Source of the DNA: a virus
Lineage: Duplodnaviria > Caudoviricetes
Direction: 5' to 3' (one strand)
Virus record (IMG/VR): IMGVR_UViG_3300017721_001026
Location: 89,809 to 153,808 of that record
DNA: 64,000 nucleotides
In this document: positions 27,906-56,929 of the stretch, piece by piece
How the letters are laid out: each line of letters begins with the position of its first letter
Numbering within the stretch: position 1 is the first letter of the stretch
Made by a program: the position numbers and the translations under genes
The notes under the pieces: generated by a model
What the model saw: only the letters and a program-made list of their open reading frames with translations
Told to the model about the DNA's origin: nothing
Databases searched by the model: none

Positions 27906-27998
27906 TGGAAGTGGTGGGACTCGAACCCACAACCGCGCACTAATCTGGTGCATACAGAAGGTATAAGCTTCTCGCTCTGCCAATTGAGCTACACTTCC
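27906..27998 (-). tRNA. tRNA-Ile(UAU) with a 25-nt variable region; CCA not encoded
   Basis: Acceptor GGAAGTG/CACTTCC+A; D arm GCTC-AATTGGCA-GAGC; anticodon arm AGAAG-CT TAT AC-CTTCT; T arm GTGGG-TTCGAGT-CCCAC. Confidence 0.92.
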
Positions 27999-56346: not shown

Positions 56347-56375
56347 ATTATACTCATAAAAAAAGGACCTGTCAA
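56347..56375 (-). promoter_or_regulatory. Early promoter overlapping a terminator
   Basis: TTGACA-17 nt-TATAAT. Confidence 0.85.
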
Positions 56376-56572: not shown

Positions 56573-56636
56573 TGTAGGTACTCCTGAAGTTGGGTGAAAA
56601 TTAACCTTCTCATCTTTCGATGGATCCGTTTTTTCC

Positions 56637-56864
56637 CGTTCCTTCAGTCGTTTGCGTCCCAATACCACTCACATTCTGGTGATGATTCCTTAAGGGTCTC
56701 AACCAACTCTACCTTCAATACAGAAGATAGATTCGCATTGTTCTCAATCTTCAGCATGATAGCATCAGTTTGAGTACAAGTGAGTGTTGTATAGAATAAT
56801 AGTTCTAGCATGGGATGAACGCTCCGTTCCGCGACTTACTTGCGTCTCCCTAAGGAGATGAACG
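56637..56864 (-). ncRNA. Nested double glutamine riboswitch (glnA/Downstream-peptide family) enclosing an ORF
   Basis: CGTTC-A-TCTCC(TTAG)GGAGA-CGCAAGTA-AGTCG ... CGACT-GAAG-GAACG-G, with a second GAACG-GAG-CGTTC-A-TCCCA...TGGGA-CGCAA inside. Confidence 0.82.
56644..56811 (-). CDS. 55-aa protein encoded inside the riboswitch; absent from the ORF track
   Basis: MLELLFYTTLTCTQTDAIMLKIENNANLSSVLKVELVETLKESSPECEWYWDAND; GGAG RBS 10 nt upstream. Confidence 0.75.
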   Translation of the reverse strand: MLELLFYTTLTCTQTDAIMLKIENNANLSSVLKVELVETLKESSPECEWYWDAND

Positions 56865-56872
56865 ACAGGTCT

Positions 56873-56901
56873 ATTATAGACCGTATAATCTATTTAGTCA
56901 A
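56873..56901 (-). promoter_or_regulatory. Early promoter (with overlapping CTAAATA late motif) for the riboswitch transcript
   Basis: TTGACT-17 nt-TATAAT; predicted +1 at about 56866, right at the aptamer 5' end. Confidence 0.85.
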
Positions 56902-56929
56902 GTGTGTTTGTATCCCCACAAACTATAAG

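Follow-up and report, generated by a model that had tools for sequence, protein, structure and literature searches.

A phage leader RNA likely to fold as two strand-exchanged glutamine riboswitch cores enclosing a gene

How can two copies of a glutamine riboswitch core and a complete gene share one short phage leader RNA, and which of the repeated strands pair with which? The locus lies in a window of 64,000 nucleotides (the whole stretch of DNA analysed) within a 154-kb IMG/VR virus record. The neighbouring genes, which include ThyX, glutaredoxin and carbamoyltransferases, are typical of T4-like cyanophages, and ~420 phage records have the region in common. We consider it likely that the leader is a glutamine riboswitch in which two cores exchange their P1 strands, share the P3 helix, enclose a gene and act through a single ON platform. 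Elsewhere in the window, a tRNA was detected at positions 27906–27998 on the minus strand (61 bits), with UAU as its anticodon in the alignment and 21 nt inserted in its variable region.

All features described below are on the minus strand and numbered by window position. They form a compact unit comprising a promoter, an RNA element (56864–56636) enclosing the open reading frame ORF1, a second open reading frame (ORF2) and an intrinsic terminator. The promoter (56901–56873) is of the sigma-70 type, with TTGACT at 56901–56896, a 17-nt spacer and TATAAT at 56878–56873, matching at 11 of 12 positions; homologues have the same promoter in the same position. The transcript is predicted to start at ~56866, 1–3 nt ahead of the first aptamer base. 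The unit ends at the terminator (56384–56364), an 8-bp stem followed by a T run. The stem overlaps the promoter of the following gene, a perfect TTGACA-17-TATAAT (56347–56375). Just upstream of the −35 hexamer is an NtcA-like box, GTT-N8-TAC (56910–56923), and three homologous loci (L003, L132 and L174, in our numbering) have a perfect GTA-N8-TAC at the equivalent place; transcription of the unit may thus additionally respond to nitrogen. This is a self-contained phage transcription unit whose leader is a riboswitch with ORF1 inside it.

The original prediction, made from this sequence alone, described an outer three-way junction whose P3 helix opens into a second, circularly permuted junction closed around a gene. 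Read directly from the minus strand, all of its elements are where it had placed them. The outer P1 pairs CGUUC(1) (56864–56860) with GAACG(2) (56641–56637); A56859 follows the 5′ strand and leads to the heavily covarying P2 hairpin UCUCC-UUAG-GGAGA (56858–56845). The joining strand J2/3, CGCAAGUA (56844–56837), supplies CGC as the ligand-site strand of the predicted outer pocket and AGUA (56840–56837) as the 5′ strand of the E-loop. It is invariant apart from an UGCAAGUA variant in 3 of 208 loci and agrees with the consensus CGGAAGUA of the glutamine-I model RF01739. The P3 5′ strand AGUCG (56836–56832) pairs with CGACU (56650–56646), and is followed by C and G (56831–56830). On the 3′ side, positions 56645–56636, aligned to GAAGGAACG of RF01739, comprise the J3/1 sequence GAAG (56645–56642), the E-loop 3′ strand, then GAACG(2) and G56636, the partner in the outer long-range C-G pair. 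The E-loop strands AGUA and GAA (56645–56643) flank P3, and homologues align both to the E-loop columns of the model, the non-canonical pairs themselves being predicted; GAA varies only to AAA. In three loci (L132, L155 and L174) the A after CGUUC(1) is changed to G jointly with a change of the first C of CGCAAGUA to U, and this exchange of A.C for G.U suggests a wobble-type pair closing P2.

Enclosed by P3 lies the second junction, of 39–46 nt in compact homologues and about 180 nt in the window. Its P1′ is the hairpin GAACG(1)-GAG-CGUUC(2) (56829–56817), followed by A56816 and the P2′ 5′ strand UCCCA (56815–56811), whose final A is the first base of the ORF1 AUG (56811–56809), as originally described. 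The P2′ 3′ strand UGGGA (56661–56657) leads to J2/3′, CGCAAA (56656–56651), where CGC would be the ligand-site strand of the inner pocket; its letters are retained in homologues that lack the ORF and in which they are non-coding. A loop of about 150 nt holding a 55-codon gene had been predicted for P2′; it measures 149 nt, and ORF1 (56811–56644) encodes 55 amino acids. The gene's last codons, TGG GAC GCA AAC GAC TGA, have the letters claimed for them and build the P2′ 3′ strand, J2/3′, the P3 3′ strand and the start of J3/1. Long-range pairs are possible between C56842 and G56636 (outer) and between C56654 and G56824 (inner), although variation at these positions is uninformative. The swap of this pair to C-G noted in the original prediction is real, and glutamine-II has been solved with this orientation (C19:G41; PMC6698751). 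The inner junction has no E-loop, with AAA in J2/3′ and a single C in J3/1′, which makes ligand binding there less certain.

Because both CGUUC copies and both GAACG copies are identical in most phages, only variants can decide which strands pair. The window carries the majority haplotype, and its sequence permits both the nested register and a tandem one. A collection of 80 IMG/VR loci, obtained through ORF1, was enlarged by ~140 with patterns fixed to the element's 3′ half; parsing of 208 loci into elements gave 123 distinct core haplotypes. All five helices are conserved in these 208 homologous loci, with compensatory changes, which exceeds what chance would produce. GAACG(1) is changed to CAACG in 28 loci (14 cores), and CGUUC(2) is CGUUG in 28/28, a G-C to C-G exchange in the inner P1′. 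GAACG(2) is changed to AAACG in 16 loci (5 cores with U-A), and CGUUC(1), ~250 nt upstream, is CGUUU in 16/16, converting C-G to U-A in the outer P1. Inner and outer changes occur together in 15 loci. In the nested register, P1 and P1′ are 100% Watson–Crick across the 123 cores; in the tandem register, 15 of the 123 are mismatched in both helices (C.C or U.C in one; G.G, G.A or C.A in the other).

Each P1 helix has one variable base pair, the remaining four being constant, and the choice between the two registers turns on this single pair. The position corresponds to G36:C5 of the glutamine-II structure, which lies outside the base triples and ligand contacts (PMC6698751); no other pair in the ligand helix is plain in this sense, and this accounts for variation being confined to the site. 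P3 is canonical in 100% of the 123 cores, with compensatory AGUCA/UGACU in six loci and AAUCG/CGAUU in two, and one-sided changes give only G.U pairs. On a tree of flanking sequence we counted 11 changes for the inner pair, 9 for P3 and 2 for the outer pair, a small number of independent events for the last; the counts are confounded by recombination. The inner variable sites are inherited together, being only ~8–12 nt apart. The substitutions in P1, P1′ and P3 support the nested register as the sole one compatible with the homologues, and the opening of P3 into a circularly permuted second junction is upheld with it. For the window itself, we infer the nested fold by homology. The alternative raised originally, of two tandem aptamers whose loops kiss, is disfavoured by the CGUUU/AAACG and CAACG/CGUUG substitutions. 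The covariation check came out in favour of the fold: the AGTCG/CGACT and TCCCA/TGGGA complementarity is retained in ORF-bearing loci, where compensatory changes are seen.

Two loci have unusual arrangements. L194 has a single fused unit, in which CGUUC(1) and the start of an ORF in P2 are joined to the 3′ half of the second unit and the P3 partner is absent, probably a deletion between the repeated cores. L161 has three consecutive units, of which the second and third are nested (AGUCA/UGACU) and the first carries AGCCGACU, for which there is no obvious partner.

At gathering thresholds, Rfam gave no match at the element. In E-value mode, only the 5′ 46–50 nt of the element in the window were matched, in the local register, by RF01739 (30 bits; threshold 35) and by the glutamine-II (Downstream-peptide) model RF01704 (26.2 bits; threshold 33), the latter with non-canonical pairs in the model's P2. 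The RF01739 score is low and local because the 149-nt ORF interrupts the fold. Natural homologues that lack the ORF allow the same models to be applied to an uninterrupted element. P2′ has a short loop in 12 loci; 10 of these are short in both hairpin loops and have an element of ~85–96 nt. With such ORF-less homologues, RF01739 chose the nested alignment in 5/7, scoring 38–41 bits (gathering threshold 35) against 30–34 bits for local alignments. That alignment runs through CGUUC(1), P2, CGCAAGUA, AGU, an insert of 39–46 nt, ACU, AAAG and GAACG(2). The Infernal comparison proposed with the original prediction, in which the glnA model is applied with the ORF loop removed, is thereby answered above threshold for 5/7 natural sequences, and the glnA layout assigned to the outer junction is supported.

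Folding gave the same picture. The RNAfold minimum-free-energy structure was nested for 5/5 compact homologues. When nine compact homologues were aligned, 99.6% of cells were paired; 0 of 500 shuffles reached this level, and slid controls gave 34–53%. A nested covariance model built from the nine, R1, matched the window as two halves (32.6 and 11.6 bits) without bridging the 149-nt ORF; this split reflects a hit-length limit and is no argument against the fold.

An ordinary tandem doublet, in which CGUUC(1)/GAACG(1) and CGUUC(2)/GAACG(2) form independently and the complementarity within GAACG-GAG-CGUUC is incidental, would account for the purely local Rfam matches in the window and is compatible with the window's sequence. 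It is also how such elements have been treated in the papers examined: the 2010 alignments of Weinberg include these sequences, with the 5′ unit aligned locally and the remainder treated as flank (PMC2864571), and in a 2022 survey of tandem riboswitches 157 glutamine doublets are entered as "pseudo-cooperative" units that work independently (PMC9481103). However, it leaves both helices mismatched in the 15 cores where the nested register stays Watson–Crick, and it leaves the AGUA/GAA E-loop strands and the P3 strands without partners, although P3 covaries. RF01739 scores the nested alignment above the local one once the ORF is absent, and there is a single anti-Shine–Dalgarno platform where independent aptamers would be expected to have one each. 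We regard this reading as most improbable.

The identical repeats also admit an RNA that alternates between the tandem and nested registers, so that the exchange itself is the switch and no separate platform is needed. There is a precedent of sorts in glutamine-II, whose crystals contain a strand-exchanged dimer in which the PK helices (the ligand helices) are hybrid, and which functions as two pieces (PMC6698751). Yet the cores with U-A or C-G substitutions are free of mismatches only when nested, with the rest of the element unchanged, and a separate covarying anti-Shine–Dalgarno helix is present. Register switching seems very unlikely, if marginally less so than the independent doublet.

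Accepting the nested fold, a single sensor might suffice: the outer junction would bind ligand and the inner one would be a relic of duplication or a scaffold for ORF1, or the roles might be reversed. The missing E-loop and shorter joining strands of the inner junction fit this idea, and ORF1 coding could account for part of the inner conservation. On the other hand, inner CGUUC, CGC and GGAACGG are as invariant as their outer counterparts, with change tolerated only at the same single free pair, and the inner letters are retained in ORF-less homologues where they are non-coding. A one-sensor element is the least implausible of the three alternatives, but we still consider it unlikely. In the preferred reading of two exchanged cores, each junction has the full ligand-site set known from the glutamine-I and -II structures (CGUUC, GGAACGG, the strand CGC and a long-range C-G pair), so that two glutamine sites on a shared helix are predicted.

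The hairpin loops of this architecture accommodate genes. ORF1 fills the P2′ loop and ends with the stop codon UGA at 56646–56644; its product is annotated as T4-GC 430 hypothetical protein (phrog_504). The synonymous share of single-nucleotide codon differences is 65%, where 23% is expected; lengths vary in 3-nt steps, and entropy rises from codon position 2 through 1 to 3. By these codon statistics, ORF1 is a real gene under purifying selection. All ORFs found in P2′ loops belong to one family of 156 distinct proteins, around which P2′ shows the compensatory variants UCCUA/UAGGA, UCCUC/GAGGA, UCUAU/AUAGA and UCCGU/ACGGA. Since the W-D-A-N-D-stop codons use nucleotides that are kept as non-coding sequence in ORF-less homologues, the RNA dictates the C-terminus of ORF1. 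A possible Shine–Dalgarno sequence for ORF1 is GGAG, formed by the P1′ loop and G56825, the last base of the 5′ arm.

P2 also accepts genes. Its loop has an insert of >100 nt in 33 loci, mostly a 66-aa ORF unrelated to ORF1. In these ORFs the AUG pairs with CAU plus a stop codon (UCUCAUG/CAUGAGA or UCUUAUG/CAUAAGA), and as a result the stop codon used (UGA, UAA or UAG) covaries with a 5′ strand that is not translated. The 66-aa small-protein family (MLSILLALTLAHH...GQC) occupies the P2 loop in 31 loci, for example L092, L097, L100, L115 and L147. Every insert falls in a terminal loop of the nested model. In the P1′ loop, a homing-endonuclease gene or a 60–100 nt remnant was observed at exactly this place in L003 (890–1462; Sf-CH5), L050, L082, L151, L175 and L226, and the invariant riboswitch core looks like the homing target.

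What the element regulates had been left out of the original prediction, in which neither the platform nor ORF2 appears. The segment CUGAAG (56647–56642), consisting of the last two nucleotides of P3 and J3/1, is complementary to CUUCAG (56589–56584), which overlaps the Shine–Dalgarno sequence AGGAG (56585–56581) of ORF2. In homologues, CUAAAG is found with CUUUAG in 68/68 and never opposite C, and CUGAAG is found with CUUCAG or G.U variants. The CUGAAG/CUUCAG helix is present in the minimum-free-energy fold of the window, and this anti-Shine–Dalgarno helix, located after the second unit, is the only one found. Between the aptamer and the Shine–Dalgarno sequence is an additional hairpin, CAUC-GAAA-GAUG (56611–56622), which covaries in related loci (CUGA/UCAG, CUGC/GCAG and CUCG/CGAG); an AAACGG repeat lies nearby, within GGAACGGGAAAAAACGG.

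ORF2 (56572–56405) encodes 55 amino acids with two YRGxxY motifs and is annotated as T4-GC 937 hypothetical protein (phrog_545, 1.3e-35). Against DUF4278 (PF14105) it scores 20.5 bits, below the cut-off of 25.3. It is one of the "downstream peptides" described by Weinberg 2010 (PMC2864571 supplement) and a relative of the IF17-like proteins studied by Klähn 2018 (PMC6212724). That study found that the glutamine-I riboswitch of the gifB leader turns synthesis of IF17 (DUF4278) ON by freeing the ribosome site. This YRG gene is likely to be the regulated output in the phage, and the alternative CUGAAG/CUUCAG helix at its Shine–Dalgarno sequence predicts a glutamine ON switch.

A mechanism can be proposed on this basis. 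CGUUC(1) would pair with GAACG(2), ~220 nt downstream, to give a canonical glutamine-I three-way junction (P1, P2, the AGUA/GAA E-loop and P3), and the uncapped P3 would lead to the permuted junction of P1′ (GAACG(1)/CGUUC(2)), P2′ and CGCAAA. P2′ would close around the 55-codon gene, whose AUG and last five codons double as aptamer nucleotides. When ligand is absent, CUGAAG is expected to pair with CUUCAG adjoining the ORF2 Shine–Dalgarno sequence; the glutamine-stabilised fold would draw CUGAAG into P3 and the E-loop, freeing the ORF2 ribosome site in the ON state. The same fold would bury the ORF1 AUG in P2′, and probably GGAG in the P1′ loop as well, so that ORF1 and ORF2 may be expressed reciprocally, the unfolded sensor favouring ORF1. 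A ribosome terminating at the UGA within CUGAAG could open the anti-Shine–Dalgarno helix regardless of glutamine, blurring the ON/OFF logic.

The arrangement may extend beyond these loci. In a sister class of phage doublets (L444–L562), both units contain AGCCGACU, and pairing of AGCCGACU with AGCCGACU between units gives an 8-pair P3 with two C.A positions. The end pair of this P3 switches from U-A to A-U, AGCCGACA occurring with UGCCGACU in 14/14. Local 2-bp P3 hairpins (AG-CCGA-CU), which the 2010 alignment takes for granted, were considered for this class and rejected, being broken by the inter-unit AGCCGACA/UGCCGACU covariation. The U-A to A-U switch supports inter-unit pairing in the sister class and suggests that phage glutamine doublets are nested in general. 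In a sample of 151 cyanobacterial genomes, in which marine picocyanobacteria were not specifically represented, the 15 loci inspected were all canonical single glutamine-I aptamers. A search of genome contigs for the pattern CGGAACGG-N(1-6)-CGTTCA gave no riboswitch-like match among the at least 120 matches listed, a result that is not informative on host genomes.

The phage element combines properties of both glutamine riboswitch classes. With glutamine-I (RF01739; Synechocystis gifB leader, PMC6212724; structure of Ren et al. 2015, as summarised in PMC6698751) it shares the outer P1 CGUUC/GAACG, the following A, P2, a J2/3 ending in AGUA, P3, GAAG and a long-range pair, together with placement in a 5′ leader that precedes a YRG/DUF4278 gene and an anti-Shine–Dalgarno helix that predicts an ON switch. 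It differs in that P3 is a 5-bp helix leading into a second, permuted core and not a capped hairpin, in the C-G orientation of the long-range pair (G-C in glutamine-I) and in having whole genes in its hairpin loops. With glutamine-II (RF01704; 6QN3, PMC6698751) it has in common the CGCA linker, a long-range pair oriented C:G, the nucleotides of the ligand site and an association with YRG peptides. The strand exchange of the glutamine-II crystal is comparable to that in the phage element, where it would be hard-wired within one chain. In contrast to glutamine-II, the phage element does not display GGAACGG in the loop of a P2 hairpin, and its exchange is intramolecular and conserved. No covarying hairpin was found around either GGAACGG in the homologue set, and a type-II-like 3-bp hairpin, CGC-GGAACGGA-GCG, was rejected as it is broken by the linker variants AGC, AGU and UUC.

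The tandem glycine riboswitch is another parallel, with two homologous amino-acid aptamers coupled to one platform and cooperativity a possibility for both. Glycine aptamers, however, are arranged in series and communicate through tertiary contacts, whereas in the phage a helix of one core contains the other core, and P1 strands are exchanged. Group I introns with homing-endonuclease ORFs in their loops likewise illustrate a structured RNA that tolerates an ORF in a terminal loop; the host RNA in the phage is a ~90-nt metabolite sensor, and the sensor's helices include the codons at which the ORF starts and stops. We found no description of a nested, domain-swapped or gene-enclosing glutamine riboswitch in the literature searched.

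The usual picture of a glutamine riboswitch is a simple sensor of 60 nt, and the frequent doublets are regarded as independent of each other. Should the nested fold be true, many phage doublets would be one two-site device with one output, the second dual-aptamer amino-acid sensor after glycine, and would show RNA strand exchange occurring naturally within one molecule. They would also represent a metabolite aptamer kept by selection around complete genes, with start and stop codons as aptamer nucleotides, and translation would be coupled to sensing in a way not previously described. Standard Rfam scans miss or mis-register such elements, and phage riboswitch counts are consequently underestimated. 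A broader proposal, which we offer tentatively and hold to be possible but doubtful, is that most phage "tandem" glutamine riboswitches are single two-site sensors, with P1 strands exchanged over a shared P3 and hairpins that serve as gene slots. They would act as a toggle, yielding the enclosed protein when glutamine is low and the IF17-like protein when it is high, and would respond cooperatively and more steeply than a single aptamer; an RNA whose enclosed gene carries ribosomes could not at the same time undergo folding driven by glutamine. The putative target protein has relatives among the inhibitors of host glutamine synthetase, which points to phage control of host nitrogen metabolism tuned to the glutamine level of the cell.
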